Numbered from the stretch's first letter, positions 15,480 through 55,110 are shown. The stretch is DNA of 64,000 bases from Catajapyx aquilonaris (GCA_000934665.2 KZ538817.1:1-64000); one strand, 5' to 3'. The notes: generated by a model not told the origin, from the sequence alone. Numbers and translations are program-made.

Positions 15480-16014
15480 GGGTCAAAAGCGATCGTAAAT
15501 GGCCAGTGGACGTCAGCGCCGTCGACGTCGTTCCCGGGTGCTCCAAGAGGTGGTTCTGCGTGTGGCGCCGGCGCAGCCCCATCCGGCAGGTGGCGTTGGC
15601 TCTCTTTTTCCTGTCCAGGTCGCCATCTCTGGCGCCTTGTCTCCTCTCACCCACCCTGGCCCACCTCCCACCCTCCAGCCAGCCCCTCTCCTGGCGCGCG
15701 CTCCCGGTTCGAATTCCCATGGCGCCGTCCGAAGCGGCCCTGGCAGCATGCGTGCGCTCCTGCGCGCCCGATCCTGGGGGGAAAACGGAGAGAAACGGGG
15801 GCCCCGACGCCGGTTCCCGCGGGCGACTCCAGCCTTCCTACCAACACCACCTCGTCTCTCCGCCTGACTCTACTACTCGCAGGCCGCCTCCTGCTGCTGC
15901 CTCGCACCCTCCGCGCCCATCATCATCCACCGCCGCTGCATCATCCAGCCAGTCTGCACCTGCTACCCACCACAACACCACCTCGGTCCAGCAGTAGTCT
16001 GCCCGCAGGACTAA
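15480..16014 (+). promoter_or_regulatory. GC/CpG-rich promoter and 5' leader of the Oaz/ZNF423-like gene
   Basis: Sharp GC/CpG-rich island directly upstream of the MSRRKQ start codon; in-frame TAA (16012-16014) abuts the ATG; upstream ATGs at 15719 and 15748. TSS not determinable. Confidence 0.6.
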
Positions 16015-16054
16015 ATGTCCAGGAGGAAGCAGGCCAAACCCAGGGCTTTGAAAC
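16015..16054 (+). CDS. Oaz: Oaz/ZNF423-like coding exon 1 (NuRD-binding motif MSRRKQAKPRALK)
   Basis: atg tcc agg agg aag cag gcc aaa ccc agg gct ttg aaa c|gtaagt; consensus donor at 16055. Confidence 0.92.
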
Positions 16055-16887
16055 GTAAGTAGTGTGGGGTCCACGTGGGTCCAATCACGTGTGCCGCTCA
16101 GAGTGATCGGTCACCACAGGTGTGCGATACCCGCACGTGCCACCGCATCTGCGTACAAACTTCCGATTTTTTTTTTTACACGGTCCAGCAGGATACGCCC
16201 ACATTCGCACCTGTCAAATCCCGGTTTTTTGCATAAAAATTTTGGCACGTATTCTTCTTGAAGGGGAGTGCACATTTTCTGAATAGAGGGGGTTAATCGA
16301 GCGGGTTTATCGTTGCATTGAAAGTGTGTGGAAACTTTGCAGTGTCTCGTTTACAGTTGGTCACCGGCACTCTATAAGGCCTGGGGGAAATTACAGGGTA
16401 GATTCCGCCGCCTCCCACCTCCCACCCTCGAATGCGGCGGGAAACTCCTTTTATGCGGGCGATGATTTCGGGGGAGTTGAAGACAATGCGGGGTTATGCC
16501 GATATTTAACCCGAATTTTGTTTCGAGCTGAATAGGCCTACTGTCTTCTCGGTGTATGGCGTTTTCCCCAGGCATTGTGACAATAATGTGATAGGCGCAC
16601 GTTGCTTTTAATATGGTTATGCAGAACTGCGGGGTAAAAGTTAGAATTATTTGAGCAACTTAATAAAAATCTCCAATTACGCGAATAAGATTTTCCCGTA
16701 ATTGGGAGTCATGCAGCCGGCCCTTGCTCTCTCATAATACTGCACATATTAAATATGTATTATACATTGACTAATAACTTCGTAGTGTTCGCCCAATTAA
16801 TTTACGTCTCCAGAACGCCTACTTACGTAAAATAGCCATCATGTATTACAATACATAATCAAAACTACCGTGCATTTCATCATCATC

Positions 16888-16958
<71 letters not shown>

Positions 16959-19900
16959 CTGCACTTGCACAACATGTCTGATTTCACAAACTTACAAGTA
17001 GCCTACAGTAGTCTACATCAAGAGATATGGTGTATACAGTCTACTGTATTTATTTGGCTAACAATTTTCAAGTCGCGTTCATTGCACTCCAGGAGGAAAC
17101 TGCTTGTGTTGGAACCGAACATTTGACGCATTTATTGCCGAATAAATTTAACATGGCCGTTCATCCCACATAAATCTGAACTGATAGAGTTGAAGTAGCA
17201 AAGCACAGCACCCTACTCCAGATAGTGCATCACTCGTCAGTTTCTAATCCAACACGACTCGAAGTGTAATGAATATAGTGGCAGGAAAGGGGGAAGTAAA
17301 ACGATGAATTATGTATTCTCCCCCCTCCTCCTCCCTACCATCTTCCCTCGTCCCTACCAGTAATCCAGGGGTATTGGAGGAATCAGTCCGCGACTGCCGA
17401 TAGTATAGGAAGCGCCACAATAGATCTGCTGGAGGACTAAAAGCAACACAATGCCACATTATGGCCATCTTCCATACTCCTTCGTGCCAAGGCAATCGAT
17501 TTTCCTCCTTGACGCATGCACATGCAGTCTTTCCGTGGTATATCCCTCCCCCCCCCTCTTTCCCCCCCTTCCCTTACCCCCAGGCCCCAGGGGTATACGT
17601 GAGGTAGGCACACAGGGGACCCCCCTTGGAAATGGTCCTATCGGTCTAGCCAACATCCATCGCGACGCTGCCACTAATGGCCTGGCTTTTCCTGCAGGCA
17701 TTTTTGGCTCCCGCTCGGACAAATTGGGATTTCTCACTGCCGATCCGGAGATATGGACTTGCAAAAGTCGCTCCAATTTTCGGGCCCCCTGTGGCTAACG
17801 TAGGAAGATCGATATATTATATAGTGTGTATATAACAAGAGAGGAGCGACCCCTGTCCACCTTTTTTATGTGTGGGACAAAAAAAATATTAAAGAGTGAC
17901 ATTATGGGACGTTTGGTTTGCACTGATCGGATCAGGGAGTAGTAATTATTGTGTTGTTATGTTGATGGAGTGGCAAAGTTTGAAGCTGCTTAGGGGAAAC
18001 CATTGGCATTATGTACAGCCATTCGTATAAATAAATAAAAAATATGAGCGAAATTTTAAATTTTGCATGTCTTATTACCTGCCTGGCCTTATGCACCCTG
18101 CTATTATATATCAATGGTCGTTAGAAAGCAGATTTGTGCCGGTATATAGGTTAGTGTCATGCAACTCTTTTCTGAGCATGCTACCTTCTAAGCACGCAAG
18201 CATAATCGTTTAATTAATTAATTTATTTGCCTTGCACATGGATTCATTTAAAAGTCCAATCTAAAGTACTGGTGCTAAAATTGCAGTTGGTGGTTCCAAA
18301 AGACAAGAGGGTTTCGGACCATCCTGTTTACCGTATATTTCAGCGCTAATAAACCCCCAGCTCCCTATAGTGCGAGTTGGGGAGATAGGGAGGTCTTATT
18401 GGCCTGACCTTTTTACACAGCAGGCAATTAGCCCTCACCTGTTCAGCTGCGTGATCTCGGCAATTTTACAACTTGTACTCGCAGTTTCTAGGAATATCGT
18501 GCACACAGCCCCACACGTATACGCTCAACTTAAACCCTTAGTCCCGATTGAACCTTGTTCAAGCAGACTCAGCAAATTACCAAGTAATCTTCCCGCAAAC
18601 ACGATATTGCGCGCCTGCCAACAGCTTCCGACAGTAATTACCAAAGAAATTCCAGCATTTATCATCCCATGACAACGCTTTTGGAGCACAGCACAGGTGC
18701 CGTGTAATGGCCAGGGAGTAGCTACATATATTATTAACACACTCCATGTAGGCATATATGCATATGGGAATTTAACATCAATATCCAAGTCGAATCGCAA
18801 AGGGAAATACAACTATAGCCGCAATATCGAAATGGCATATCGATACCGAATATCGCAAATTGATAATTCAATATGTTCTTGTGTATATTTAAATACATAT
18901 CGACAGTACAATCGATCAATGTTATATCGATATTTATTTATTTTATTTTATTTTATCGATATTTATTAATACCCGGTATCGCATTTTAAATGCATACTGT
19001 ACATTGAAATGGGTTTTTGCCCCGCTAGAGATGTTTTGCGTCAGCCTGTAAATAGGCAACTGGAGTAGTTTTTGGCCCCTAGCGACCGAACAGAGAATCA
19101 GCCCTGTTCGTGTCAGCACTCGGTAATGGAGTCGGCGGGGGTGTATATCGCGAAACCGTTAGAAAGTGGTGACAAAATCGGATAATGTAACTCGCTAGGG
19201 GAATCTATATGAAAACACCGCAAGGTGAGGAGAGACAAGTTTGACGCTGTTTGCCGACACTTCACCGTACCAGGTTAATTTTCAGGCTGCTAAAACACTT
19301 TTTTTTATTTTTTTCGAAAACTGTGAGGGGTAGAGAGGAGGGGAGGGGGAACTTCACCCGGAATCCCGGATTTAATAGGCCCCACATTATGCCCAAGGCT
19401 GAAATCTCTAGATGGCGGAGCAGAAAAGGAGAAACTCCTCACTTGGAATTGACTGTGACAACTCGCGCTTGTTTACAATTTTAAGGCCCCTTGATAAATT
19501 TAGCAAAGGCTAGAGAAGATTATTTCACAAGAGCAATCCCGGAGCAAAAACTAGGGGAATCTGCTTCCCAAATTTCGGCGGGAAGGAAATGAAGGACGGG
19601 AATCCTCTTGTCGGCGCCGTTTTCACTCCTTTGCTCTCATTCGACTGGTGGAATTTCTCACCGAAATCTGTGTGTTGACTGCAGAAAATCTGCAGTTAAT
19701 ATGCAGATTGCTTTGTGTGTTTTGGGCGATAATTGGTTATAAATTGCCAAGTGCGCCATCTCGGTTGAGGAATGGAGGGAAAAAAAGATGGTTAATTCTA
19801 TTACGTCGCTATAGTCGGCTTCCATTTACTATAATTCTGCCTCCTTTTCTTATCATTCCGAATAAAAAAAAAGTGCGGAGAAAACAAGGGTTAGAAGGAG

Positions 19901-22900
19901 ATAAATTACGCTCATTCATATCAATGGGGGTGCATAATCTTGCCACATTTCAGACTTCTTTATTTGATGACGCGTTACTCGCTTTTACTGTCGTGGTTCC
20001 ACATTCTGGGGGCTTCTAGATTACTGCCATATAGGCTGCGATTTATGTCAATAATAAGAATTCCCCCGACCTCTTTTTGTGACAGTCGACAAAACATTAA
20101 TCAAGCTGTTTGCTAATGCTCCGGATAGTAATTTACACATTAATGTTCTGAATGAGGAATTACGTCGCGTAAAAACCCGCCTGTGTATATGAGGCTGTTA
20201 ATTATTATTTGGTGCAACAAGTTGGCAAAATGCAATTTATCGCTGGCAGTATATACATCTTTTGTTTACAGCGTCCACACTTCATTATTGATAAAATAAT
20301 TTTACGCGGGGATTAGAATAACAATAGCTCAAAGCTTGTCCCATTCAATCACTTACAAATTGTTCGACCATGTAGGTCACAAGTTAATCTGTCCCCTAAT
20401 GAGACAATACTGCAAATATCCCGGTGATGCCCCAGCAATTGTACGACACATTAGGGGATACTGAATGTGTTTATCTCGATATTCCGGGAAATTCTCCCCC
20501 CGCCTCGCTAAAACCCGTCAAATGTGAAATGTGCGACAAAATATGCACTTTCCAGATTACCTATTAGTTTATGTTATTAAACGAATCTGGCCCAATTGCA
20601 GCCACAGCTTTCAGTTGGTTCTCGTCCGATTTTGTTCGAAGATGGCGCCATCAATTTATGGAAAAACTGGGGTTTAAATTCCTGAAGCGGTTATTCGACT
20701 TGTTGTCCAAGAATATATTGTTGGAGTAGGTGCTTACATACAAGCCCTGGGTGCAAACGCTCAAATAGGCTTGCTCTCAGTAGGGGAGCACACGGTTTTG
20801 CAAAGGCCGCTTTCATAAGCTCCAGAGGCTAGGCAGGATGTTGAGATCTATGGCTTTGTGGTCACTGCAACATCCTCTTGTGAATATCTTGGAAGCCGCA
20901 AGTGGCTTTACAAGGCGCTGCTCGTCGATAAGAACCAGCGGATACTTCCAGAACCTGTTCCCTAAGAGAGTTGCATATAGCTTTCAACTGCGATACTACA
21001 TAATGCGCAGAATGATATTGAGGGCCATTACTTGGTGATAAAATTGTTGCGGATTTTTATAGGCGACAGTTTATCAGGATGTGTGTGCTGTGTGTATGTA
21101 TGAGGAAAGGATACTCGTATGACACGCATTGTTTTCCTGCCCCCAGAGCAATAGGAGACAGGAAATTGCTATCCGAGACAAGGTTGCGACGTGGGGCATA
21201 TTTAGTCTGGGTGAGCGATTTTTATTTGTGGTGGAGTAAAGTGACTCCGGTGTGGTACACACAAACATCCGGGGATTGATTGGCCGGTTGCATGCCTGTG
21301 CTACAGCTTGCCGATGCAAATTTTTAATGAGTCCCGACGAATTGCGGTATTGATATTTGGATGGTATTATTCAGAAGAGAGAGCTACAACCCCATGCAAT
21401 ATAGGTTTAGGGCTTTTTTTAAAAAAAATTGTAGTAGAAAATTGTGTGTCAAGAATGATTTGCAGGGCAGGATTATGGACTTACAAGGACCTGGTGGAAT
21501 GATTGAGGTGGAAACACTTGTTTTTGAGGATTAGCTGTTTAATAATGCCGCCACCCTCGCAGGGTGGGAGATGTTTTATTGGGTATGATCGCACGTCCTA
21601 CGCATTAAAAAATTTGCGATTCATTTCAGCATAGAACTATACCGTGCGGGTGGTGATTCAATGCTGGTGTTGGTTTTTTCAAATGAAGGCTTCACATTTT
21701 ATTAATATTTGCGATCTGCCGACTAACTGCTGTGGCACCAAAAATAGAAGGAAGTAAATAAATAACGGCAATTGGTAGTCTGTAGTATCTATACAGTGAA
21801 AAATAATTCCAAGTTTTTATTAGGTTCGGAATGACCGCTCCCTGGCTTCACTCTCCTTTTGCTCTGTTATGTACGTCGTAAAAAGTGCTATATTCTTTCC
21901 CTCTCTGGTATTTCCTTCGCTGATTCGTCATGATTATCAGGTTCGGCAGTGATAATGCTCTTCATGTAGCCATAACGCCTGTGCCCCTATGAACCGGACA
22001 ACCTACTTTTGTTATGACTCATCAGTTATCCAGGCAAGGCGTCTGGAAACCTAATATGCTAAAGGCATGTATACTGTACCAGTATACATGCAGTTCATGG
22101 CAGTACTGACCAGTCATTTTTATGCACAGAAAGTTTTTAAAAGGTGACTAGTTTTAATAGAGAGCTCTTATTAAATACGACTATCCCCGTGGGCATATCG
22201 CTATTTTAATGGGATTGCTTTATTATGGTACTGCACTTACACGGAAACCTGATATGTGACTATTTTTATGGAGCAGGCCTTTTAGTGAATGCAGCCAGCA
22301 CATATTTTTATTTAAAAATTGCTATAGGTTTATGCTGCAGAAACTCAGAAAAGAGCATTGCGAATCCGAGGCAACTGGGGATTGCCAAACTGGTCCATGT
22401 CAAGTTTGTAGCTGGAAAAAAATTACAGTGATTATAAATTGGGATTTTTTTGCATATAGGTATGCATTTTACTTTTAATACTCAAAGTTAAAACTGTAGT
22501 GGGCCCTGGTTATTTGTGGATCGGGCTCTCCCACGGATAAACTGAACGCTGCACAGTATAACATACGCATACATACATATCTATTATAAGTTTAATGTTT
22601 TTATTAATATGTTAAAAATATTTGCAAACAATGGATGACTGAAACCGTGTATAACAGGGCCCATCACAACTGGAACTGGTCTTGGAAGAAGTTGTATATA
22701 GGTGGCAAGCTGATTGGCTGGTTTGGGAGAGGATTACAAGCTCGCAAATATTTATTTTCTTTGAGAGGAACTGTTATGTAAGTTATAGGATTCTAGACTG
22801 ATATTAGTGCGGAAGTAAATGAAGGCAAGCAACCTCAAGACCAGCAAAGAAAAGGAGCTGTGTCTCGCAGAGTATTATAATGAGCAATCCCAACAGTAAG

Positions 22901-25900
22901 CCACACTGACAGTGCTTGTATACAGCATACACACGCATACACATGGTTCTTACAAGTTAGTTTTAATATTTTTGATGGACCCGCGCACATTTTTTTGTGT
23001 ATTTCCGGGCGGCTACTGACTTGCAGGTCGGATACTGTCGTTTCGAGCACCAGCATGTCTGTGCGATGCCATTGCCCTAATTTTCAAAGGAGGGTTTGAA
23101 AGTTCCCAGTGGTATCAGGCAACGAACTTCGCGGTCCTCACCCAAGTTTCTACAGCTCCCGAAACTATCAAAAGACTTAGAACTGTTACAGTTGCCGCAC
23201 TCCTAAACAATGAGCATCGAGTATTATACAGTATTGGGTATTTTTATTTGGTGCGATACACGATATTGCTCGAGGAAAAGACATGCGACTTGACTGGTGT
23301 AAACTTGATGAGCATGGATAAATATAAGTGTGATTAAGGTCTGAGGCCGGGGATTTAAATTCATACCGTATATCACAAGACATCGTGACAGCAGTTTAAA
23401 ATCAAGAGACGGTTATTACCGCATGAGACGGGTAGGCCTCTAATTAATTACATCGTTAATGATATACAGTATTTATCTCGTTTCATACCAGTTTCATACC
23501 CTCTATTCATACCTCATTTCATCGTATACCAGGATTCGCCAGTTATTCAAACTGGGAAGTAAGGGGAGGAAGGGGACCTTTAATTCTTCTTATACGCCCA
23601 TAGCTGTTTGTGTAGCCAGGAAACGGTGAGCCTCCAATTTCACTGATCGATACACTAGCAAATTAACCTAATTACATTTACTTCAATTGAGTTCGATCCT
23701 GTATCTTTTCCCATGCCACGCCGCATATCCCACACCTGTACAGGGTGTTTCATAACGAGCCACACAAACTTCTACTGGATGAAGTCCTGGCCACCAGATG
23801 ATCACTTTATTAAGATTTCATTTGGCCTTCCCTGCTTCGTTACTTGTGAGATAATTAGTATTAATAAAGGAGTGATGTCTCCTAATTGGTGAATATCCCA
23901 ACCCATTACCATAGTGGATAGGGCCGTCCGACTGCTAATCGGGAGGTCCTGGGTTCGAATCCCGGGGCCGGCAACCCTGACCGTGGTTTTCTGTGGTTTT
24001 CCACTGTCTTTCGAGGATAATTCCGGGGTCGCTTCCGTATAATAGGCCACAGCCGCTTCCTTCCTTCCCTATCCTTGGAGGTTGAAAGGCAATGCTGGGC
24101 CAACCTCCTTAATATCAATAATTATTTTTTTTAAACCATTACCAACCATGCATGATATTTCGTATCATTCACATGGACATGTCGTCAACACTTGATTTCC
24201 GTTTCACGTCGTACTGAGGTCTCACAGCCAAAAACTGTGTCAGAGAATGTCGGGATTATACCAAATGCGTCGAGGAATCGCACCACATGGCCATAATGGA
24301 ACAGTTATACTGACCGCCCTGCATGCATGGGCATCCTACAAACATGCTGCCTGCGTGTACGTAAACAGGAGCGTATAGTGTTTACGGCCACAGCCATCCC
24401 ATCACCTCTGCAGGATTCCAGGGGTTCTGTCTCCGGTCATGCGGCGGACTTTTTGATGTGGCAAGAGTTTCGAGGGGCTACTCTCCGGGGTGTGTGGGTT
24501 TTCATCTGATTCTCCCCTGCAGGCCAAAACATATTCTTCTGTCCAACTCATATTAAGTGTGATATTGTCACATTCCAGCTTGTCTTGAAAATGTTTGGCA
24601 ATATTATTCCACAAAATTTTAGCCATATGATATCCCATACCAGTTTGCTTTACGATAGCTACAGATACTAATTTAAGTGTCTGGCTCCCCTGTATAATGT
24701 CACCCACCCTTGCGCATGCCAAACGCCATCCTCTTAGCATCACCTTACCAAGCGCCTAGTATCCTGCTAATTATGCAACCAATTAGCACTCCCAATCCTC
24801 CAGATCGATCATCCCCGGATAAAGAAACGAGGGCATCGCACTGAATAAGAAGAAGAAAAAAATACGGAGCTAAGTTTGGGTACTCCTTGGCAACACATGA
24901 TGATCGTCATCCCCAAACTCTCCCAAAATTCCCCCCGGGGCCCAGCACGAAGCACCCCTGCCTCTGACGTGCCCCGTTAATTGGCTGGAGTAACCCTCTC
25001 CTCCTTCCCCCTACCTTTTCTTCAGTTGTTCGCCTGGCTGCCACAACCTCTTATTGTAACAACTCCCTCTCCCAGCAGCACCCTCCAGCTCCTTCTGTTT
25101 CCGAACTTAGAAAGCGGCCACGTCATAATAATTGGAAGCGGCCGTCTAGCTAGCTAGCTAGCTCTAGCTCCCCAGCAATTTTAATGCCGGGAGAGTTTCC
25201 CCGGGCAGTCCGGCAGGGGAAGCTGCGACATATCGAGATGCGAGCTTCAGGGCTCAATTAGCCCCGTGGCAAGCCTTCATTAAGGCGGCGCCTTGAAGAG
25301 CGGCCGCGCCGCCGGTGCCTGATTATGAGCCCAGGTGGGTGACGGCTGAGACAGGCGCGGGGCGGCTAACTGGATTAACCCCTTCCCTGTCAGGACCGGG
25401 TGGCAAGAACTGCCGCGCTAATGCCTTCCCAGCGACGATCTCATTAGCCTAAGCTCTTCTTCTGCTGAATATTTTACAATCGACGCACCCCCTCCATCCC
25501 GCCTCCCTGCCTCCCTACCGCCCCCCAGCCCCACCCTCGAAAAGTTGCTAATTGTTTTATAATATTAGGCGGCCCCAGGCACCGCCTTCTTGCTTGTTTG
25601 GCGCCCTTCGAGGGAGCCTGGCGAAAGGTGCAAGAGTGTGGCGGCTTGCAATCTCGTGTAATCGCTTATGATTAGAGATATGGCCCAAGGGCGCCTTGCT
25701 TACCTTCCGTCCATCCTGATGGGTGGGGATGGTGAAGAAGAGAGAGATTCTAATTGCGAGCGTGCTTTATGTCTCGAATTATGCAAATGGGGTGTCGTTC
25801 TGCTGGGTAAAAGGTGGGATGCGCGGCTGGACCCAGGGAAAGAAGATATGCGGTGTCGAACAAATCAAGTGATTGCGGCATCCAACTCGGCGGCCAATTA

Positions 25901-28900
25901 TTCCGGGAATGGGTGCGAACTTGGCCCGGATCCCACTGCTGCCTCGAACGGGAAATTGCCTTCCCGTGATTGCCAGCAATCACATCCGAGGGGAATTTTT
26001 GACCCGTGTTTCCCGCCCACGGGCCACGTCCGATGTGGGTTCCAAAGTGGTCGCCAGGGCGGCGTTCAAAGGTCGCTTTTTCGAAAATTGTTAGAAAATG
26101 AATGGACAAATTCGTGTAATTTGGAACAGAAGAAGTTATGCGCATTGTTTGCGCCAACGACCAGATTATATCAGGAATTTGTCGTGATTGTTTATCAGTT
26201 CTCTTTAAGCTAGTTGCTGGAAAGAACAATTCACATTCTTGAATTGCTGCGTACTTGGACTGTTCAGTACAAGCTGTAGGTAGGATGTTGGTGAAAGTGA
26301 ACACTTGTGTCACCTTTGGATGATCCTGCTTGAGAAAATGCAGAGACGTAACGACTTTTTCTTAGTAAATTCACTGCCTTATTAAAACTTTTTTTAAATT
26401 AGTCAAACAACTAAATGAATTCGGGATATTTGACTTCTGAGAAGTCAAAGCTGCAGTTCATCGCTGACTATACCCGTTAAAGGAAAATGTCGTGATGGTG
26501 TTGTTGTTGTTGTTGTTGTTGTTGTAAACCTGCATTTCTAAAAAAAATAATACAATTATTCTTTTAGATCAGTGAGGTTTTTTGGGGAAAAAATCATTTT
26601 CAATAATTTTATGAGGCAGCATACAGCAAGTTGTTTGCGTGGTTTCCTAACTGATCTGGATTTAAAGCTCATTTTTTTGTCTCGTGCTTCTATACCAGAA
26701 TAAATGTTTCCAAGAATTGATTACCTTCTCTGGACAGACCACATTTTTCTCCAATCTCTGTTTTTTGGCGTTCAAATGTTTCTCCATCACAACCGTCCAA
26801 AAGAAAAACTGTATCCGCAAGAACGTTCTCCATCATTATACTATAGTAATCCACCAATATGTCATTAATAGTAGCTTTAAAATGCAGAATGACGACATTG
26901 AGTCGTACAAATATGCATAAAATGATACCATTATATAAAGTGATCTCAGGAGTTCCTCCAAGAAGTTTCCCGGTCTTATCACGAATCACTCGCAGTATAC
27001 AACTCCAGTTCTACCAAACTGTGGACCAGATCGTAGTGGCCACCAGTGTGACACAGTATACGCCCAGCTCCGCCCAGTGTCCAAAAGTGGGCAGCAGGGA
27101 GTCTGAGCAAGGCTTGAGAAGTGTCCCTGATTTCTCTACAATCAGTGAAAGCCGCGTTTTTCACTCCGCTTTAATGAGCTGGTAACTGCAGAAACTAAAG
27201 CCCTGTCGTAGGGTGGCAAGTTCCTGGCCCGTATGACCACAGCTCAGGAATAAAGTTGGTCTGGCCAAAGTGTGCCCATATCCCGCGGGGGCCTGACACG
27301 AGACGCCCGTTCCCCGCAAAAGAGTAGAACCCTAGCAGTACCAGTGAGAGGTGGAGGAGGGAAAGGGGGGACCCCCCTCTTTCCTTTTCACTACTCTTCT
27401 TGCGGCTGGCCGCAGGGTGGTCGCCAGAGAGAGTAGGCTTCCTTGGCCAAAGCCACATCTGGACCCGGGCTGCAAGTTGGCATGTCACGAGCTTGGCTGC
27501 CCGATTGAAAAGCCGTGTTCTGAGGGTGGGGTCCCAGGCACCTCATACCAAATTCTGAGGTCCTCCAGAGGGAGCCACCTCCTCTCAGGGATGCGCCTCG
27601 AGGGGGTCGGAAAATGCACCCAAAGAGTGAGAAAGTCTTTGCCTATATGTATTATTTGAAGAATGCAAGTACCGAGAACTCTGGGGGGTTTACTTTTGGT
27701 CTATAGAGTTTGGTTAGGCTGACGTAGAGTATGGGTCTGAACCGGTGGAGGGGGATGTCGAGGAGAGGAGTGAAGGGGCCAAAGAGGCTTCATGTCCGAG
27801 TTGCATGAATGCTTCACTATAGGTACTCTTCTGTATGCCCTCCCTTCGATATCGATCTCAGTTCAAGTTCATCTGGGCGTTTATGTTTGCCTGGGAATAG
27901 GGGACGGAGGGAGCAGCTTGAAAATATACCATGTCTTCGTCTGAATGGAGACATTTCGCGCACACACCTGGTAATACCGGACATTAATCAGTATGGAAAA
28001 ATTGCAGGTATTCCAAGATGAGTTTTTTTCCGGCCATCGACCAATTGGCCTTTGGTGGAGCGAGCGAGAGGAGTGAGGGAGTGAGTTTCACGGAGACTTG
28101 GGCAGCGGGGGGAAGGGAAAGGACCTGTGGGCAATCAACAGGTTTTTTCCGCCCAAGTGGCAGCCAGTGTGGTGTACCATGTGCTCCGCGCCTCTGATAC
28201 TTCCCCTGGACCACCCCCCTCTATACCCACAGGCATGCGCGCCTCAAGCTGGCCACATCATGGATTGATTTGAAGGATTTTTACCCCGATTTTTGCTCGA
28301 ATCTTTGCATGGCCAGACTGTACAGGGCAGATTTCTGGGAGTAATTTTCAGTGGGGGACCGACAAAAAAATTCTTGATTCCCTAGTTTCGATCTGGCTGG
28401 TGGCCGGGCGGGGCGGCGTCCATCGCGCCCTGGCCTGGCGGAAGGCTTAATAAATCATAATCCCCGGACGGCGTCGAGGGATAGCGTTTCCGCCAGCGGC
28501 CCCCGTCGGACTCGGGACGCCGACGCACGTCAAAAATTTTTGCTGTAATTTCTCCCCTCTCGAGGGAACTCATTTTACTGCAACTAATGGCGGCTTGCGT
28601 TATCAATTCCAATTCCACCCTGTCCCCGGAGACCTAGGGGGGGAAAAGGCAGGAACCAACGTATTATTGTGTAAGGGGGCGGAAGTTTTGGGAGGTGGGA
28701 GGAGGAGGGAGGGAGCCCTGTGTATATATGGAGAAATGGTGGTGGTCCCCTAGAGCTGTTGGCCTGAAACCTAGCCATGGTCTGTTGGGAAAATGGTTTT
28801 CGCGTGCCTGGCCTGTGTGTGTGTGTGTGTATTCTTGCCACCGACGGCGCATTTTGATCTGGCTTCTGATTGCTGGGGAAAAACTGGGGAGAAAATTGCA

Positions 28901-34900: not shown

Positions 34901-37900
34901 GATGAAAGGCTGTGTCTCAGCCACCGGCTCAAATTGTCTGGTAGCTACTCCGCGACTAGCAGCATAACATGTGGTGCTGACAGCGGAGAGAAAAGCGCGG
35001 GCTTGGTGGAAACCGAAAAAGTTGGAGGCTTGTCTGAAGCAAAAGGGAATTTGCGTTCTCTAGACTTTTTTAAAAAAAAATCCAGAGAGAGAAATTTTTT
35101 AGGCTGTGGTCCATTAGAAATGATTGCAGTTTTTTCGAATGAAAGTTTCTCCAGCATGGATGTTAATGTTTATTCGCAATTATTTGTACGGATACTGCTT
35201 TTTTTTAGATGGGTGAAAGAAGGGTTGCTCCTGCCGCTTAGACCACACGCATCTCAACCCGGACTTACAGGTTTCATTCCTGGCCAGGATAAATGAAGCC
35301 AGCCACGCCTTACCTAATTACACCCCCTAAAACTCTAAGAACCCTTCTTTCACCCATCTAATTTACCATGTCCACTCGCACCCCGCCAGTAGTGAACAAA
35401 GAAATAATTGTCGCCCTCTGTGTGGTCGGTATGCATAACGTCCTTATAACTCCAGCATAACCTTTTACGGGCTCATCCTTTAGTGTGGGAGGACCAGGCT
35501 GGACCTGACTTTTGGGGGGTGGAAATTGGTCTCTCAAGTACACCATCCCACCTTAGTAACCCAGCAGCGTCTTGGTGTCAGTGGGGGCCAGTAGTGTGCC
35601 TGCCTGCCTGCCCCTCTCTCTCTCCCCCCTTTTGAAAGGCCATACAAATTAGTCCGTGGGTTTGGCATCAAAGCAGGAGATCACTTGAGGCTCCCACAAT
35701 GAAGCCATCAAGTGCGCAGTGGGGATGGGAGGAGGATGCGGAGGACCATGGGCCCGAACCGGCGCTGCTCTGCGGGCGATCCGTCAAGGGGCCAGCCCTT
35801 CTAGGAGAGTCGGAGGGAGGGCCCATCCTGCCCGGCTCATAATGAACCGGGCCCCTCCTTTTCAACGGCCCCCCTGCCTGCCTCCATACACCAGGCCCAT
35901 AAGGGGAATGATAACTTTATTCTGGGTGTGCACGGACCAGAATGGGTTGCTGGAGGAGGAGGAAGAAGCACGTCACGAAGGCTAGTGCTGCAAGCGCAGC
36001 TGGAGATTTCAAGGAGTTTCTTTTTTTTTAAATGTCTCTCGATGTGCGTGTGCAGATATAACCGGGGGGAGCGTTATGTTGTTGCACAGTAGGTCCCTTT
36101 CACGCGATTAATGGGATGGAGGAGTCTACCCTTGAAGCAGGAGATGGGGAGGTTAACACTTGGGAATGTGATGACACAATAAGTGTGGTAGGACCAGTTG
36201 GGGACGTGGACTTACCGGTAGGGGTCAGCAGAATAATTAAGTTACAATGACCGTATGGTGATGCGAATTACTGGAAATGTACGTAGATAATAAATACAGT
36301 AAATGAATTGTATTGAAGATGCAGTACACTGTGCAGTTTATTCGATTCAACTGGACCGAGCAAGTGCGAATGTTAAAAAAAAAAAACTTTTGACAAAATA
36401 ATCTGCACCAGCCCAGCATCAGACAGCATCATTTTCTCATGGCTAGTTTCACTGACACGTGCCAATAAACCCTTCATCATGACAGTCTCCCGCATTTTGG
36501 GGCCTGCCTTGTTTCTGACTGAATTCCACATTTCCATGTTGTGTCAAATTGAACTTTGGAATCCGTCCGGGGGAACATGCAAAAAAATTCTGGCATGATG
36601 AAATGAGTCCGACAACTCTCCGCATGGAAGCTCGTATTACAAGTGAGCTGGTGACAATAGGACACGTACCACACCCAGGATTTTCAACATCAAGTTTGAT
36701 AACTTTATACTGTAAAGATAGTCTGCACACCTGGGGAGCCTGGAATGGAAGGGGCTTTGATGTGAGTGTATGTGTGTGTGTGTGTGTGGATGGCAGTGGG
36801 TGGTGATCTCCCACCGGTCCGTAACCCCCTGCTGCTGAGAACTTAATTCACGCGGGCCGGACGGAGATCGGGAGGGGGTCCAGAGACACGGCGGGGGGCA
36901 CGGCCGCCAAGCCCTTCCCAGGGGGCCGCCGTGGTTCCGATGGACACCCCGGGAGGTCTCAGACATGCTGGGCACGAGGGACGGTACCGGTGGAGAGAGA
37001 GAGAGAGAGGGGATGAGGGGGTATGCTGCAGCAACAGAAACATTTCTTCTCCCGACAACTCCTGGCTGGATGCCAAAAACAGGCACTGCCATTGGCTGAT
37101 TTGGGTCATGTGACCTGGATTAGGGTATTCCCCAACCTGCCGGACTAGATCATAGGAATACAAGGCAGATAAGGGAAGTTTTGGTATATTTGGGCGAAGG
37201 AAAAGATCTATCTGCGCGAAAACCCTTAGGCCGACTTCTTCCTCACCTCCCCCCCTTCCAAAAGGGACTTGGAAATCACAAAGATCGCGATTGTTTTTGC
37301 TAACGATCGCGCCCCAGCGCCAAGCAGCCTCGTGCCATAAAGCCGGCGAGTAAACGGGATAATCAATGTAATTAATGGAGACATTCCGTTATCCTATTGA
37401 ACCCCAAATGGGAGAGGAAGGGCGGAACTCCACTTCTTGGGGTCCGGGCCTCGATTGCTTTACGGCACGGCAGTTTCCCGTACTTTCGGGAGCTCCGTCG
37501 CCAGATTTTTGATGAAGCTCTTGGGAACTGGCTGGAAGGGGGAAGGAGGAGAGGGGAGAGGGGAGGATAGAGAAACGGCGGCTCTTGCAAGGACCCAGTA
37601 GGCCAATTCGGGACGGCGTCAAATTCCAGCCAACTCGATGAGAAAAGGCCGGCAAATTGTGGCCAGAGCCCAACACGTTGTAGCCTCATATTGCCCAGGC
37701 CAAGACGCCCGGATTTGGAAATGAATATTTGAGCTGACCCCCGGGGTTAGAGGCCAAGGAGGCTGAGGGCCGCGGCCATCCTTCATCTCAGCTGCTTGGA
37801 TTCATTTTCGCCATACCTTGCACCAGCAGGATATCTCACTGGGACAGGTACAAATAAGGCCGGTCTGTAACGCTGCATAATTTTTGAGTCCCTAATCCGT

Positions 37901-40900
37901 GAGTGCACGTGGTGTAATCGGTTGAACTTATGGCGAGCAGAAGATCACTTCATGTAGAGGTGTCCTTTGGTCTTAGAATGCTTGTTACTGAGATAATGGG
38001 CTTCAAACAAAATTCGCTCACAAACGTGCAATTTTAACATTATCACATGTAGGCCTAGCTGGATGCGGTACGGCGATGAAAGTGTCATAGGCTGTATCCT
38101 AAACATATATGTGACAACAAGTAACGAGAATTCGGGTATACCATATAGGGATCCAGTAGTGTCCAAAATAACGTTTGAATGAAACAGGCTATTACGATTT
38201 ATGGCACCACGGGTCAAATTAATAGAGGTTTGCCAGGCTCTTTGGCAGTATTTGTGCGGATGACCAAGTGATAACTCTGATCCGGAGTTTCCGGTCGCCG
38301 TTCGCAGATTGCACAAATTAATTCGCAGGAAAGCTTACGGTACTGTGCTCCAGATCTTGTTACACCTAATCCAACTGTGTGCTGTAGAATTTGCCCATAT
38401 AACGCTTCGAAGATTAAACTCTAGTCGGCAGAAGTTTGAACAGAAATAAGCTGTTTCGTGCTAAGCCTAATTAGCCGTTTTCTGCAACGAGGGAAAGCGC
38501 GGGAGGATTGAAGTATCAAAACTATTGTCAAGACAAATTAAGCGCCACTCCTGAAAGAAACCCTTCACCTTTCATTACATCACGTATAATTGCTTTCCTT
38601 GCATATCCTCCCACGGCTTAACTTTTATCCGAACCCTGAACATGAATACAATTTTTATGGACCCTCGACTCTGCAGGCAAGAGTAAATTTTTCATGCGAA
38701 AATGCCTACTTGTGTTTTACCATTGCTCGAGTTATTTTCTGACAATCACTTGTAATTTAGTTTAAACCAATCACGAAAAAGTGTTCCATAAGTTAGCTAT
38801 ATCTAATGGCCACATAACCATTGAAAACTTTTCCTATAGGCAGACCACAGAGCAACTTTGTCTTACTATATTGTAAGCAAGATTAAGGAAAACATAATAA
38901 TATCATTCTTTCAGGTTTGGATTGTTTAGAATTTTCTGACATTTTGGACTGTCCTATGAGCGCACTGATAATTACATTGTAAATTAGATTAATTATTATT
39001 AGTGGTAGAATCCATTTTCCGCAGCTCGTCAGTATAGCAAAGAGCTTCCTGGCTAGGAGCAAAGGGAAAGAGAACAAAAAAAAGGGGAAATCCAACAAGT
39101 ATCGTCCTGGAAACTGTTCCCTAGTCGGAAATCCTAAACACCAAGAGTTGACCTCCCGAGTCCCAACGCGGCAATGACCAAAGGCCAGCAAGAGGCCCAA
39201 ATGACGCCTACTGTTAGGCCCAGCAAGCGCCAACTATACGCTCCCCGCGCAATTTAATTCCAATTATGCTGGGCTGTTTGTAAGAAAACGGCAGCAGAGT
39301 TTGGCCTGGTCCTTGGGGCGCCTCTTCCGCCCCTGGAATGGCGCCTAATGATGCGAAGGGAGGGCCTCGCACTGCTGGACCCGCTTAGCTGATGCTGCTG
39401 CTGGCCAGCAACATTCTTTCATCTAGTTTTCAGCTTTTGTGCCTTTGTAAAGGACCTCCCAAACTTTCTCTATTCGCACAATACCAAAATGTCCCACCAG
39501 CAATCCTGAGCATCTCGTCCATTCCGGTTCCCTCCAAATTCATCGCTTTGCTTCAGGAAAATAACAAGTTCTGACCCAAGAATTGCGTGAATTTGGTTTC
39601 CCCTTCTCCCATCCCCCACCCTCTCGCCTCGTCCCTACCTCCCCTTTGCCAAATAAATGGCAGTTTGCAAAGTTTTCCGGATAACTACCAATCAATGAGG
39701 GGCCTCTGGTGTGTACCAAACCTGCTAGCTCGAGCCATCCCCACCCTTACTAAGAGGCATTTAGGCGAAGTGCATTAGCACTTTGAAGATTGTCTCCTAC
39801 AAACACTATTATCACATTTTAAGCCAACATGTGATTGCCATGCGTGTACATACGTAACTCAATATGGTTTCTCAGATAACCCTCCACTGGCATTCTCCAA
39901 CTTGGGACCACCCCTTCTCTTAGAAGGGCATTCAGGTGGAGTGAATCCTAATTAGCATCACTTAAGCCTGGTAAGGTTTCATTTATTTCTATTATGGCTG
40001 GATGATAATCGAGTAAAACAAGCCGTGCAGGTACGGCCCTCACTAAACCACCAACGGCTCTGTTTATTTCACCGGGATAAGAGAGGCCGGGGCGGGTTTT
40101 CCTTGTGCCGGTTCGTCAAATAAAGATGTCTCCTGCTCACGGCATCTCTCTCCAAGGGCGATATGTGGCCACTCCTGTGATGCCCAACATCTTCATCTTC
40201 AAGGGTTGGAACTACGGAACACGTTACCCTCTCAAAATTTGACCCATTGCATCGTAGCAGATAGAAATTGTGCATTAAAACTAAGTGCATAATTTTATTT
40301 ACTGGATGCGAAAAATTATGCACTATAGGCGTGTATGAAATTATTCAGTAGGTAGTACGTAGTAGGTGTATAAAATTTCGTAAAAGTAAATAAGGCTGTC
40401 GCAGTGTGATTAAAATTACTTAATGTCGCCAATAATTTTATATATTAGGAGCATATTTTAACATTTTTAGTGTACCAACCGCTATGCACTAATCGTATAA
40501 CCTGTAATGTAACGAGTATATGGTTCGTGCCTAATGAACCGGACCACGTCTTTCCAGTTTTTACACCCCTGAAGCTGGTGTATAGCACCGAGAACTTGCA
40601 GATCAACGTTTGCATATAGTTTCCAATCGTGCCTGCAGTCATGCACACTTGTGTTGGTTTATGCGGTGGTCGTGGTAATTTCTGAGGTAATTCCTAGACT
40701 GCTGGTGGTTCTTGCATGCCGAAACGAGACAGCCATGGGAGGGGGTCAGCGGCGCAGCAGGAGGAAGATGGAAGGAGTTATGTAGATGTGAGAGGTTTTT
40801 TCCCCTCGTGTGTGTGTGTGTGACCCCCACCATCACAACCCTTCCAGATCCTGGCACAGTATAAGAAGTGTATGGAACTGCGAAATATCCTGGCTAGCAA

Positions 40901-43900
40901 GACCGGTCTGTGCCACCCAACTGAAGTATCGCATACGCACGTCCCTAAATTATGGCTATCAGATCATCTTTATACGCCTCTTGCGCATTCAAACGGTCCT
41001 TAATTAGCATGTGTGTTTATATAGCGAGTGGCATTATGCGTGCGGCTTTTATTGGAGGCTCGTATATTACATACTGCGATAAGCTGGGTTCACACAGGCT
41101 GTTTGTCTTTTCAGTCCTTGCGGTTGACCAATCAGCGCTCTTTCGATTTTAGGACTGGGTTAGTTGACGCAATGCCGTACATCGATTCGAATGCATTTCT
41201 TCTCCAAAAAAAATTCTAATACCACCTTGTCTAAGCGCTGGTGAATTTTTAAGCTTCTTTCGGAGCGGCTGGGCCTCATCAATCTGCTTTTTCCCTCCGC
41301 TACTTTCTTCGTGTAATACGCGAATTGAAATAGGGAAAACTAGTCTTCCGGTTCCCACGGGGCCTAAGTAATCAGGGTGAGGGCTTATTCCGCAAACATA
41401 ACGGGGTGAATAAATCGACGCCACGGGGAATGAATTTTCCTTTCAGGCGGCCAAGAAGTTCCCCTTCCATGTCGCGCTCCTTCACATCGGAAGGTCCTCT
41501 GATCGCGACCAGAGAAGTTCTTTACACCTCTCTTTTTTTTGATTCTTTGGCTCGGTGAGGTGTAATGGACACGACGGCGTGATGGAATTTCTGATCCCGG
41601 GTAAATTCCACAGAAACGAGTTTCTTTTTAGCTTGATGGCCACTTCCGTGTTATTTTACATGAGTTGTCTAACTTGATTTTAAGCGTGGCTTACCATTCC
41701 TGTTTGAGGATGGACCAGTGCTGCAGGTGACATCATTACTCTTTGCAAGTCGAGGCAGCTCACCTTAGATCGTGCACTGCGATGGCGTCGTAAACGCTGG
41801 GTGTTCTAACAGAATGGCTATGATAAAAATTCGAGTTAAAATTTTCTGCTGTGTAAGAAGTTGGCATATAGGTAAGAATTAAAGCAGTAAATTATTTTCA
41901 TAATTAGTGAAATTACATGCTGCGTTAACTCAACTAGCTAACATGTGATTCTGGGGCATTTCTCACGTTTTGTATATAAGTGTAGCATATATATAGTTAT
42001 TTTTATAACAAATATGGCCAATTGAGTCAGACTATATAATTAGCATAATATTTCTAGGGTAGGTCCCGACCAAAGTAGCCGGTACTGCACCGGCGTAATT
42101 CCCGGAAGAGTGAACAAAACAGGCTGAAACAGCAAAAAACCTCGGTGGTTCAACCCTTAATTACCGCATACTACAGGAAGTGGTCAGCAGCATTCCGGAC
42201 CCCGCGATATCCTGGCACGATTCTAAAACGGGTGGCTCTCGGATTCACCAAGATTTTCCCTGCTAGATTAATCATAGTCGTATGAATTAGGTCGACGTTT
42301 GCTCTGAGGTCCCTGCATAATTTAGACTTGGGAGCGGAGATCAGGGCCTCTGGACTTGATGTCATCCGAGACATATCCGAGGGGCATGCCAGCTAGTAGA
42401 AGGGGGTGGGGGGAAGGGGGAGGAGGACTCTTGAAAAGACAAAGGTCGCCCCCTGTACGTGTCCAGTCGGAGAAAATTAACGTACTCGCATATTACATTA
42501 ACAGCAGCAGGGAAGGGGAAGGACCACGAAAAAATATCCAAAAGTCGAGTGGACGACCGGATGCGATGAATAATTAAGGTAGCCTATAGGTCCCCCACTC
42601 CTGTCGGTGTCGGAGGACAGATTACATCTTAACGTGGGGAGGGCAGCCTCCCGTGACCTATCTGCTGGAGAGGGTGGTCACGTACATTTTCAGCCAGTAA
42701 TGGGCACAAGTTAGCTATTCCGAAGAGGTGCGGTCCGCAGGTGGTCGATGTCTTCGCGGAGACGGGTAATTACAAAAGTTGCCCTTCCGGTATATCAAAA
42801 GGCTGGGAGTGACCAATGAAGTAATTGACGCCCAGGGGTCATTTCGGACTGCGCTTGTTGGTATGCCAGCATGGAATAATGAAAGTGCCAAAATCTATTA
42901 TTTGTTTAGGAAAAAACCGTATCCTGGAGCTATGCAACCATCATCACTCACTGGAGTGCTGGTGGTTGTATAGCGCCAGGATATGGAACCGGAGGGTTAC
43001 TGTTTGTGACATAGGGTTGGGGGTGTCATATTTTGAACCACACTGTGTGAGTTAGATTTTGATCTGCCTAACCGCTACTTGGCCACCGTGCACGAAAAAA
43101 GAGAATTATTTCCGGACACCAAACGTGAACCTTCTGTATTCTCCTGGAGGGAACAGTGGAAGCACTTGACTAGGGCAATTCTAGGAAGAGCATGACTCTG
43201 GAGACCATTGTAGCAACTATGGGGTCCGCAAAAATGTGGATAAAAAAATCCACCTCGAGAGCTGCTGCGGGATGGCTGTTCATCTCTAGGTACCTCTCTT
43301 GGGAGTCGAACTCGAGACTCTTCTTGATCCCGGGCTGCTGTCCCTGCGGTAGCCTCTCTTTCTCTCCCCCTCTTCTCTCTCTGACTGTGCTTGCAGCCCC
43401 GTGTGCCAACCACGTCTCTACTACCAAACGTGATCTCCAGGGCAAGTAGGACAGCACATGACTGCGTGACTTCTCCTGTCCGGCCAAAGTTGCCTGCGGG
43501 ACACACGCTGATTTCTTTTGGCTCCCCGGAGACATTGCGTTAATTTCCACTCTACTTAAAGGATGCACGACTTCTAGTGCCTGGCTCATAAGCTGCTGGA
43601 GAAGAATTGGAAAAAGATAAGAGCCTGATTCTGATTGGCTGAGAGGGTTCGGTCGGTCCAGTCAGTGGGTATGGAATAAACATGGCGTTTCTAAAATACG
43701 TCGACGAAAATATTCCACGTCATTGCCTGAATTAGAGTGTAGAATATGCACTTTTCCTTGGGGAGTTCTTAGATTTTGGTTCAACTTTTGGTGGTGTCCT
43801 GGCCCCCATGATGAGGCTCATTGAGAGTCGGACTCGGCCGGACCAATCAGAGGCCGGAAGATAAGACACCACAAGATGCCAAAAGTTGGGTGTAGGACTT

Positions 43901-45001
43901 GGGTCTCCCTCAGGATCGCTTAGTTTCACACCCAACTTTGGAAACTCACGCGGATAAGAGTTGGTGGCCAATGAAAATCGGCCTCCCCTTTTATTGCTCT
44001 TTGCCGAGTCATTCTTGCTAAGGGACAACTTAGTGTTGTCGATGTAAAAGAGGGGCTCAGAATGTCGCTCCAGAGCTCGGCAGTCAATGTTGGGATTGGC
44101 GATTAACTTGCAATGGTTATGCAGTACTTAGGATGGCGATGCAAATTGTATCCGGATGGACACTGGTAAAGGTCTTCTGTCAAGAATGCCTTATTTACAA
44201 CGGGCCATTAACTGGATCTGAGAGGCCGTTCCGGAGTTGCGTTATTCGATCTTTAATGATGGCGTGAAATGGTCGGGATTCAAATGTTTCCATCATTCAG
44301 TGAGCCATTACTGATACAGACTCATCGTACGATGTCTCGGTATACACAAGTTGAACTACATGCATAATTTCCGCGACTTTAACTAGTCCTGGCTAATCAA
44401 TTGCAGTTCTTGTAACTTTTGTTAGTGTGGTCATTCGGCTTGGTATGGTCAATAGTGGGGCTGAGCTGGCTCCTGCTGCTGCCTTGAGTCAGAGGGTAGC
44501 GAATAATTGTCGACAGCTCCAAGCAAAGCCAAGGCGGTTGTAACAGCTCCAGGTAAAGCTCAAGACGGTCGTTTTGGAGAGACGCTTGTTATATCCTCTG
44601 GGTCCCTCCAGTTCGAATGGGCGCTTATGCATGCGGGTCCAGGCGGGCCGTCAAAATAGCGCAAGACGGGCGTAATGAAGCGCAGCTTGTGATGCCCCCC
44701 CTACTATTCTCCCCCACTCTAAGCTTGCACCCCTTGATACAAGAGAGAGACAGGCGGGGTGAGGACCCCTGCATGTTATTCGGTAGGCTCCAGCTCAGAC
44801 CTGTGTGTTTTGCAGATGAAGTCAACCGGGCCGCGGTGGAGGAATTGGGCGCACCCATGGGACTATCATCGCTCTCCAGCCGGCCCATCGGAGCTCAGGC
44901 ATCCGACGACACCTCGGCCAAACTGCGCTGCGACGCTTGCGACGCCCGATTCGACTCGCTCAAGCCCCTGCTGGAACACAGGAACTTTGACTGCCCTTCA
45001 G
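16015..45001 (+). CDS. Oaz: Oaz / ZNF423 / ZNF521-like multi-zinc-finger transcription factor, 5' part; coding exons 16015-16054, 30045-30137, 44816-45001; gene continues beyond the window
   Basis: Spliced: MSRRKQAKPRALK-R-GEWDSECAGKNDEAAEDEVTCPAANNLGIK-D-EVNRAAVEELGAPMGLSSLSSRPIGAQASDDTSAKLRCDACDARFDSLKPLLEHRNFDCPS. N-terminal NuRD motif closest to ZNF521/423 (MSRRKQAKPRSLK/SVK as recalled); the C2HC finger resembles ZNF423 finger 1 ([24 protein letters not shown]). All junctions are GT-AG and phase 1. SALL, BCL11 and FOG families share the motif but fit less well. Confidence 0.8.
16889..16957 (+). repeat. (TAA)23 microsatellite preceded by (CAT)4
   Basis: Read directly from the sequence. 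Confidence 0.98.
18780..18985. mobile_element. Degenerate ATCG/TATCGA-rich element, probably related to the MITE at 13172-13448
   Basis: Dense atatcga/tatcgat/tatcgc motifs in an AT-rich context; termini not recognisable. Confidence 0.35.
22495..22668. mobile_element. Degenerate small MITE (pogo/Tigger-like TIRs)
   Basis: tgtagtgggccctggttat (22495-22513) and ataacagggcccatcaca (22651-22668) are imperfect inverted repeats around an AT-rich core. Confidence 0.45.
23909..24075 (+). mobile_element. tRNA-derived SINE (head with GCT anticodon loop), 5'-degenerate
   Basis: tagtggatagggccg-tccga-ctGCTaa-tcggg-aggtcctgGGTTCGAATCCcgg followed by ggttttctgtggttttcca...ggccacagccgcttccttcc, a body typical of arthropod SINEs; no acceptor stem or long variable arm. 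Confidence 0.8.
26499..26525 (+). repeat. (TGT)9 microsatellite
   Basis: Read directly from the sequence. Confidence 0.95.
30045..30137 (+). CDS. Oaz: Oaz/ZNF423-like candidate coding exon 2 (93 nt, phase 1-1)
   Basis: Strong acceptor ccttctttttccttctccttccag|, donor aag|gtaaag; open acidic frame GEWDSECAGKNDEAAEDEVTCPAANNLGIK that joins exons 1 and 3 in frame. Confidence 0.72.
44816..45001 (+). CDS. Oaz: Oaz/ZNF423-like coding exon 3 with C2HC zinc finger (186 nt, phase 1-1)
   Basis: Acceptor tgtgttttgcag|, donor cag|gtaggc; encodes LRCDACDARFDSLKPLLEHRNFDCPS (C-x2-C-x12-H-x4-C with F and L at canonical finger positions); GC3-rich codons. Confidence 0.88.
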
Positions 45002-48000: not shown

Positions 48001-48772
48001 TAGGTCTGGCCCAAGTATTGTGCGGAGAAAGGGGAGGGCCTTTATATACAGTTGCTTACTTTTGGGGCTGTTGTTGGTGAGCAAAGTGGCACATAGATGA
48101 GGCCTTTTGCAGAGCAAGAGTGCTGGCGAGGGATCCTACATGCATGGAAAGTGGGATTTATTGCGTCGTGGGGATAGATGCACTCTACTGCCCAATTAAT
48201 TCGGGGCGCATGTTTCGCAACTCGCCACGCATTCAGCAAGATGTGCGTTTTATACCGGCGTTTTGCTTCCTACCAAGCTCTCCATTAGGGGCTGACTCTT
48301 GTACCTAGGACCTAGGTTATTAATGGTTTTAGTGACAAAGAGAGAGTGGGGGTGTGGAAGCACAGACTGGTTTGGATTTTTAGTGGAGGAAGCTGTGATT
48401 TAATAAGGAGGATCGAGGGTTGAGGCAACAATTAAGTTATATTTGCGTGTCATTATATTTGGCGGGGGGTTTTAGGCGGGAAAGGCGTCATTCATATGCT
48501 TCGTTGTGAGCAGCGATAATTTTAGTGGCCTAACTAATTAACTAACTATCAACCAATCAAACACTCAATTTGTGTCCAGTGCACATTATAAACATGAATC
48601 ACTATGTACAGCAGTATTGGAAAATGTGAAACTCATTTTTGTATCAGGTTGTAATAAAAGTGAGTGTCTAGCTGGTTTTTTGAGTTTGACTAACTGCCAA
48701 GAGAGACTTCAAAAGTAGACAAAAAAATTCTTACATTTTGCCCTTTTCCTGCAGTTAGGATTACATTGCGTG

Positions 48773-48915
48773 TTGCGTTAATTTAAGATTCCAGTGAAAT
48801 ATTCAGTGACTGGTGCATGCTCTGCGAATATAAATGTCATGATTTTTGGATGCTGTACTTATCTCCCGCAGGGAATTATCATGCAAAGTTTCACTGAAAT
48901 TCTAAATTAACGCAA
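48773..48915. repeat. 27-bp inverted repeat pair, probable MITE remnant
   Basis: ttgcgttaatttaagattccagtgaaa (48773-48799) versus tttcactgaaattctaaattaacgcaa (48889-48915), 24/27 complementary. Confidence 0.6.
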
Positions 48916-54900: not shown

Positions 54901-55021
54901 ACGACACTTGTACAGTGCATTTGCACATAAAAATATTTAAAATTTTTAACGAAAAATAATTTAGGCATTTGGGTTAATTAGAACCCTTAGTAAGCGGGAA
55001 ATTGAGCGGAATAATGTAATA

Positions 55022-55110
55022 TTTAGATAGAAAAGTGCTGAATTCTTTCCACTGGTTTAGGTGGAAAAGTACTGAGTTATTTCCACTTGTTTAGGCGGAA
55101 ATCGACTGAG
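55022..55110. repeat. 34-bp degenerate tandem repeat, about 2.6 copies
   Basis: Units start at 55022, 55056 and 55090 (tttaggtggaaaagtactgagttatttccacttg-like) with an internal tttccac/gtggaaa dyad. Confidence 0.7.

Follow-up and report, generated by a model that had tools for sequence, protein, structure and literature searches.

Several unrelated families of zinc-finger proteins, SALL and BCL11 among them, are described as sharing a short N-terminal peptide, the FOG repression motif, which interacts with the nucleosome remodelling and deacetylase (NuRD) complex. An earlier note on the DNA studied here had referred to such a shared N-terminal NuRD-binding motif, and the literature cited here indeed places it in FOG, SALL, BCL11 and ZNF423. 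We analysed a stretch of 64,000 nucleotides (nt) from Catajapyx aquilonaris (GCA_000934665.2 KZ538817.1:1-64000), called the window below, in which this motif opens a 40-nt coding exon that is followed by two further predicted exons. Together they are probably the beginning of a ZNF423/OAZ-type gene.

In FOG-1, whose N-terminus is printed as MSRRKQSNPRQIKRS, the motif reads MSRRKQSNP, and in the published structure the top face of RBBP4/7 holds the free N-terminal peptide, whose Arg-4 reaches into the central acidic channel. The first nine residues of Ush-B, a U-shaped (Ush) isoform of Drosophila, are reported to be identical to the FOG motif (Ush paper, 2021). Drosophila NuRD (dNuRD) is described as binding the motif of both Ush-B and FOG-1, mutations that abolish mammalian NuRD binding also abolish dNuRD binding, and phosphorylation of Ser-2 reduces binding of the motif. 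Within the Drosophila proteome the motif is reported from Ush-B and OAZ only, the latter being presented as the second motif-bearing protein, with a relation to dNuRD that this source calls unknown (Ush paper, 2021). On the ZNF423 side, an amino-terminal MSRRKQAK is described as highly conserved among orthologs and as recruiting NuRD (Zfp423 preprint), and a bioRxiv preprint of 2020 on ZNF423 orthologues reports the MSRRKQ start 'among invertebrate homologs', giving examples from arthropods, brachiopods, echinoderms, hemichordates, molluscs and nematodes.

A motif-bearing first coding exon

The motif of the C. aquilonaris locus stands at the extreme N-terminus, directly at the initiator ATG at 16015 and just downstream of an in-frame TAA (Table 1). 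Exon 1 (ATG TCC AGG AGG AAG CAG GCC AAA CCC AGG GCT TTG AAA C, followed by gtaagt) starts MSRRKQAKP, with S2, R3, R4, K5, Q6 and P9 all present, while positions 7-8 are AK compared with SN in FOG-1 and Ush-B, the MSRRKQSNP start being absent. Its frame is closed on both sides, by that TAA and by a TAG two codons beyond the donor, and MSRRKQ occurs a single time in a six-frame scan of the window.

Table 1. Positions of the exons, introns, finger and neighbouring genes, counted from the first letter of the window.
Feature	Position	Strand	Description
Coding exon 1	16015-16054	+	40 nt: ATG, 13 codons and 1 base; donor gtaagt; encodes MSRRKQAKPRALK
In-frame TAA immediately 5' of the exon 1 ATG	16012-16014	+	translation reads ...CPQD, stop, MSRRKQAKPRALKRK, stop
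Predicted intron 1	16055-30044	+	13,990 nt, phase 1
Predicted coding exon 2	30045-30137	+	93 nt, 31 codons, acidic linker
Predicted intron 2	30138-44815	+	14,678 nt, phase 1
Predicted coding exon 3	44816-45001	+	186 nt, 62 codons, finger 1 at the 3' end
Zinc finger CDACDARFDSLKPLLEHRNFDC	44929-44994	+	C-x2-C-x12-H-x4-C; residues 83-104 of the spliced model
Probable start of intron 3	45002-64000	+	at least 19 kb, no further finger-coding frame
FCP1/CTDP1-type phosphatase, 3' part	1296-3076	+	BRCT in 1296-2618 (E 1.1e-05), FCP1_C in 2681-3076 (E 6.4e-06)
Ribosomal protein S17	7429-7764	-	E 0.00027, under the Pfam cut-off; probably mitochondrial
CENP-L	9736-10596	+	one open frame, 286 codons, E 1.4e-26

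The end of this exon recurs in other DNA. Metagenome contigs scanned with a degenerate back-translation of MSRRKQAKPR yielded 19 loci, in 15 of which the GT stands at the same distance from the ATG as in the window, exactly 40 nt, while in L002 and L007 the GT follows after 46 and 49 nt, also one base past a Lys codon. A phase-1 donor consisting of a Lys codon, one nt and GT is present at 17 of the 19 loci, and in 14 of the 15 distinct sequences that remain once four exact duplicates are dropped; the only loci lacking it, L009 and L014, are copies of one sequence that reads MWRRKQ. Five loci encode MSRRKQAKPRALK, identical to the window. When 640-nt flanks were compared by blastn, the donor-carrying loci formed nine or more groups between which no similarity was detected. 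Neither exon 2 nor exon 3 was recognisable at the metagenome loci (tblastn E-values all above 0.4), and no finger was found within 8-10 kb 3' of the mini-exon. Chance is excluded as the origin of exon 1 because an exact ten-residue motif at an ATG coincides with an exon boundary that is conserved in other DNA; exon 1 is genuine.

Two unrelated metagenome loci, L011 and L015, both encode MSRRKQAKPRPIF ahead of the usual phase-1 donor. Their tail (PIF) is unlike the S/A-L/V-K of the remaining loci, and judged by these residues they may represent another motif-bearing gene family.

Exons 1, 2 and 3 concatenated by script give 319 nt, or 106 stop-free codons and one further base. Each junction is phase 1 with AG/GT at the boundaries, and the lengths of exons 2 and 3 are divisible by 3. 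Exon 2 is delimited by ...ccttccag/GTGGGG and TTAAAG/gtaaag, with a long pyrimidine tract and cag upstream, and exon 3 by ...ttttgcag/ATGAAG and CTTCAG/gtaggc, where CAG/gtaggc must serve as the donor, the frame being closed four codons downstream. Exon 3 alone is represented among the open reading frames (ORFs) of at least 90 amino acids (44557..45015). The earlier note had already described the 40/93/186-nt exons, in frame over introns of 13,990 and 14,678 nt, as well as this single ORF, and all of its coordinates and letters proved correct. Sequence, frame and splice signals, together with the conserved exon 1 boundary, are the established part of this structure. Most likely the annotated segments form an ordinary gene structure that is easily overlooked.

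Probable assignment to the ZNF423/OAZ family

Judging from the peptide start and the exon layout, the three exons are probably where the coding sequence of the single ZNF423/ZNF521/OAZ-type gene of this animal begins. The start MSRRKQAK agrees with the conserved ZNF423 start at 8 of 8 residues. The mouse Zfp423 gene is reported to begin with two short coding exons (33 codons) without a finger, followed by an exon 3 that holds finger 1 and about 40 other residues and can be skipped with the frame preserved, and by an exon 4 of 3.2 kb; variant names put finger 1 around residue 97 in full-length numbering, before M126. Much of this is shared by the predicted model, which has in common with mouse Zfp423 and human ZNF423 (paralogue ZNF521) the MSRRKQAK start, two short finger-less exons and a frame-preserving exon 3 with finger 1. 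The 62 codons of this exon comprise a 22-residue finger and 40 others, as in the mouse, with the finger at residues 83-104. Unlike in the mouse gene, exons 1 and 2 together have 44 codons rather than 33, and the window holds no counterpart of the 3.2-kb exon 4 or the remaining fingers.

With Drosophila OAZ and other arthropod ZNF423 homologues the locus shares the reported FOG repression motif or MSRRKQ start. Arthropod homologues are described as single-copy per species with 21-36 fingers (2020 preprint). In C. aquilonaris the large finger-array exon would lie beyond the 3' end of the window. In ZNF423/ZNF521/OAZ genes such an exon encodes most of about 21-36 C2H2 fingers, and the protein also has a C4-like region and EBF-binding fingers at its C-terminus. 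The earlier note had read the locus as the N-terminus of an arthropod Oaz, which fits best by start, layout and the Drosophila census; on the other side, no ZNF423 homologue was found and the finger is nearest to those of FOG, Ush and Teashirt.

If the exons are joined as predicted, the 40-nt first coding exon would give the N-terminal peptide MSRRKQAKPRALK, followed by the short acidic exon and the 62-codon C2HC-finger exon. By analogy with FOG-1, RBBP4/7 (p55/Caf1-55 in flies), a WD40 protein, would receive the free peptide on its top face, Arg-4 entering the central acidic channel. In this way NuRD, a deacetylase and remodeller, would reach the DNA and the partner proteins to which the finger array is bound; phosphorylation of Ser-2 would weaken peptide binding. 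Binding of RBBP4 and dNuRD is reported as demonstrated for FOG-1 and Ush-B. For the window peptide we infer RBBP4/7 and NuRD binding from this likeness, just as we infer the presence of the three exons in one mRNA and their family.

Counter-evidence and alternative readings

Several results weigh against the assignment to ZNF423/OAZ: the failure to find a finger array downstream, the outcome of the homology searches, parts of the splice-site scoring and the affinities of the finger itself. The earlier note had proposed to look for the large C2H2-array exon downstream of the window, and within the window a six-frame scan revealed no further finger pattern in 45002-64000. Homology searching, also proposed there, was made with the exon 3 peptide and returned no ZNF423 homologue either by HMMER or in word-indexed searches. 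The latter were blank for exon 3 against longer and similar-length proteins and for a two-row alignment of exon 3 and exon 1. Run exhaustively with the exon 3 peptide, HMMER gave 18 matches (E <= 0.001), none of them with an MSRRK start. These are mostly multi-finger proteins aligning via other fingers, and two (P0002 and P0012) have no finger-like pattern at all; the names checked for 10 of the 18 included Xfin-like entries, beetle, newt and octopus proteins without names, and a mosquito 'zinc finger protein ush'. As no ZNF423/OAZ homologue appeared among the protein-search results, similarity to the family is shown for the first eight residues only. A literature search for the ten-residue string yielded no paper.

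These blanks bear on the possibility that the locus belongs to some other zinc-finger repressor with the same N-terminal motif, be it SALL-like, BCL11-like or lineage-specific, and not to a ZNF423/OAZ orthologue. Several unrelated finger families share the motif, the family assignment is based on eight residues and the gene layout, and the PIF tail that follows MSRRKQAKPR at L011 and L015 suggests that more than one gene type may use AKPR. SALL and BCL11 share the N-terminal NuRD-binding motif with the window, but diverge from it at or after positions 7-10 and have their first C2HC finger within another arrangement of exons. The Zfp423 layout, with three small exons and finger 1 placed in a symmetric third one, matches the predicted model, and the reported Drosophila proteome scan, with the motif in Ush-B and OAZ only, includes no motif-bearing protein of the SALL or BCL11 kind. 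Overall, another repressor appears unlikely.

A broader view, which we regard as doubtful, is that the NuRD-recruiting peptide might form an ancient, self-contained mini-exon of phase 1, in which an ATG and 13 to 16 codons, the last one for Lys, precede a single base, and that this unit was shuffled ahead of otherwise unrelated zinc-finger repressors. Its carriers would be ZNF423/OAZ, FOG/Ush-B and perhaps the genes behind L011 and L015, with the window gene as one carrier, and the motif alone would therefore not make the window gene OAZ. Such shuffling is compatible with the conservation of the boundary at 17 of 19 loci across at least nine unrelated sequence groups, and with the Ush-B motif being reported on its own short isoform-specific N-terminus (Ush paper, 2021).

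The prediction of a ZNF423/OAZ-type gene also depends on the exon chain. Splice sites were scored with simple, generic animal consensus frequencies that were not trained on this genome. The exon 2 acceptor is in the top 0.03% of the 3,842 AG sites in the window, and exon 2 ranks first among 1,276 open, phase-compatible splice-site pairs between exons 1 and 3 (16.5 bits, compared with 7.4 bits for the runner-up independent candidate for this slot) and second among 51,967 acceptor-donor pairs of any phase. In a minus-strand control of the same region, one pair reached 16.59 bits versus 16.51 for exon 2, and because the control scores equally high, exon 2 may have arisen by chance. For exon 3 the acceptor scores a weak 0.9 bits (top 6%), less than the 3.12 of an in-phase alternative at 44612. 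We provisionally place the 5' boundary of exon 3 at 44816, since the 68 added codons do not look like coding sequence and the mouse exon favours this site.

Exon 2 ends in tandem donors 6 bases apart, at 30137 and 30143 (AAAG/gtaaag/gttagg; 3.39 and 2.97 bits). Both preserve the frame, and use of 30143 adds two codons, Gly-Lys.

Exon 1 could thus be real and the chain wrong, with exon 2 skipped or spurious, exon 3 starting at another acceptor, or exon 3 belonging to another transcript. Because exon 2 is a multiple of 3, joining exon 1 directly to exon 3 would be equally in frame, and the minus-strand control, the better acceptor at 44612, the second donor at 30143 and the lack of matches to exons 2 and 3 in the metagenome loci are further points for this possibility. 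Nevertheless, exon 2 is open and in phase behind an acceptor tract among the best of the window, and exon 3 has the size of the mouse exon (finger plus 40 residues) and is the sole finger-coding frame in 64 kb. An error of this kind is therefore rather improbable.

The finger has no second His, so that its fourth ligand must be Cys. A regular-expression search for it in six frames gave four matches, of which only that at 44929-44994 is finger-like in context, the other three lying in junk-like frames, and its language-model neighbours (ESM Atlas) are C2H2 fingers. The top family-level match in Pfam was CCHC_ZFPM2 (PF25445; E 0.019, 15.3 bits, cut-off 27), and zf-C2H2_6 (E 0.04) and zf-C2H2_4 (E 0.069) were likewise below cut-off. 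Searching the PDB returned Teashirt-3 (E 0.007), an Ush finger (0.12) and two other ZNF423 fingers (0.63), and BLASTP aligned it over 22 residues, at 41-45% identity, with later Ush fingers of identical C-x2-C-x12-H-x4-C ligand spacing. The finger by itself does not settle the family, and its nearest named relatives are the CCHC fingers of FOG/Ush and Teashirt. An AlphaFold2 model of the 61-residue exon 3 peptide, made with no alignment, had a predicted local distance difference test score of 60.4 and one long helix with no finger fold, and was discarded.

These affinities raise the question of a FOG/U-shaped orthologue, whose alternative first exon, of the Ush-B type, would be the mini-exon and whose CCHC fingers, of FOG type, would include the one in the window. 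The locus resembles FOG-1 and Ush-B in its MSRRKQ..P peptide on a small first coding exon and in its CCHC finger spacing, the Ush-B motif is described as part of a short N-terminus whose 14 residues are unique to this isoform, and two of the 18 HMMER matches are Ush-type proteins, namely P0015, a named Anopheles ush, and P0010, a partial Drosophila protein that is Ush-like by Pfam and BLAST. These two Ush-type proteins, however, reach 69.5-73.2 bits on the CCHC_ZFPM2 model over 2-3 reported fingers, compared with the subthreshold score of the window finger. When the two Ush proteins and four other HMMER matches were compared with the window by tblastn, a single finger (44929-44994) was hit, by Ush via its later fingers as in BLASTP and not via the strongly conserved first finger. 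Neither this first Ush finger nor the motif preceding it was found in the window with P0010 and P0015 as queries, the only other hit there being a proline-rich stretch (E 0.057). Since residues 7-8 are AK instead of SN, and the finger follows 83 residues from the start as in Zfp423, a FOG/Ush orthologue is very unlikely.

Lastly, that open frames and splice-like signals stand side by side by chance, with no gene behind them, is barely credible: exons 2 and 3 lack a significant database match, but an exact ten-residue motif stands at an ATG after a stop, with a consensus donor at a position conserved in 17 of 19 loci.

Surroundings of the locus and its contribution

The region upstream of exon 1 holds the 3' part of an FCP1/CTDP1-type phosphatase, a probable ribosomal protein S17 and CENP-L (Table 1). 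Tandem NEAEAKV / NEAEANE copies occur in the acidic region of the phosphatase. From 16 kb to the window end, none of the nine longest frames tested matched a Pfam family; no family was found for the intron 1 frames 19555-20019 and 25662-26213 (including the opposite strand of the latter), for the tested frames of predicted intron 2, or for 46795-47238 and 56352-56990, and no Rfam family reached threshold anywhere in the window. Of the eight best splice-site pairs in 45002-64000, only 56654-56937, which is inside the Pfam-negative frame 56352-56990, has an open frame (one of three); the other seven are closed in every frame. The emptiness from 16 kb onward would fit the long introns of one gene.

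The observed/expected ratio of CpG is 0.46-0.57 in 1-12000, which contains FCP1, S17 and CENP-L, and 0.69-0.91 in 12001-64000. Such a split would be expected if the bodies of housekeeping genes are methylated and those of developmental genes are not. Within predicted intron 1, a run of Asn codons at 16836-17126 (+), with about 25 N in translation, represents a trinucleotide microsatellite. An assembly gap of 149 N at 62921-63069 lies between G-rich or poly-Gly/Pro-coding flanks, and shorter N runs occur at 33515 and 52324-52326.

The presence of the motif in arthropod OAZ/ZNF423 homologues is already published. The description of the locus as a 'hidden' or new gene in the earlier note was overstated, given that the MSRRKQ start of invertebrates and arthropods, the motif of Drosophila OAZ and the frequent absence of the first two short exons in gene models are all reported in print. 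The same note remarks that annotation could easily truncate this region. According to the 2020 preprint, 67 of 165 vertebrate gene models lacked the first two short exons, and 8 others had questionable ones. A model of the C. aquilonaris gene beginning at the big finger exon would likewise lose the NuRD-binding peptide and finger 1, which gives the 5' structure its value for annotation. As a small extra observation, the metagenome loci extend the conservation of the mini-exon's phase-1 end to many animal DNAs. The published picture is of a motif conserved from vertebrate ZNF423 to invertebrate homologues, and to this the window contributes the 5' gene structure of one further species.

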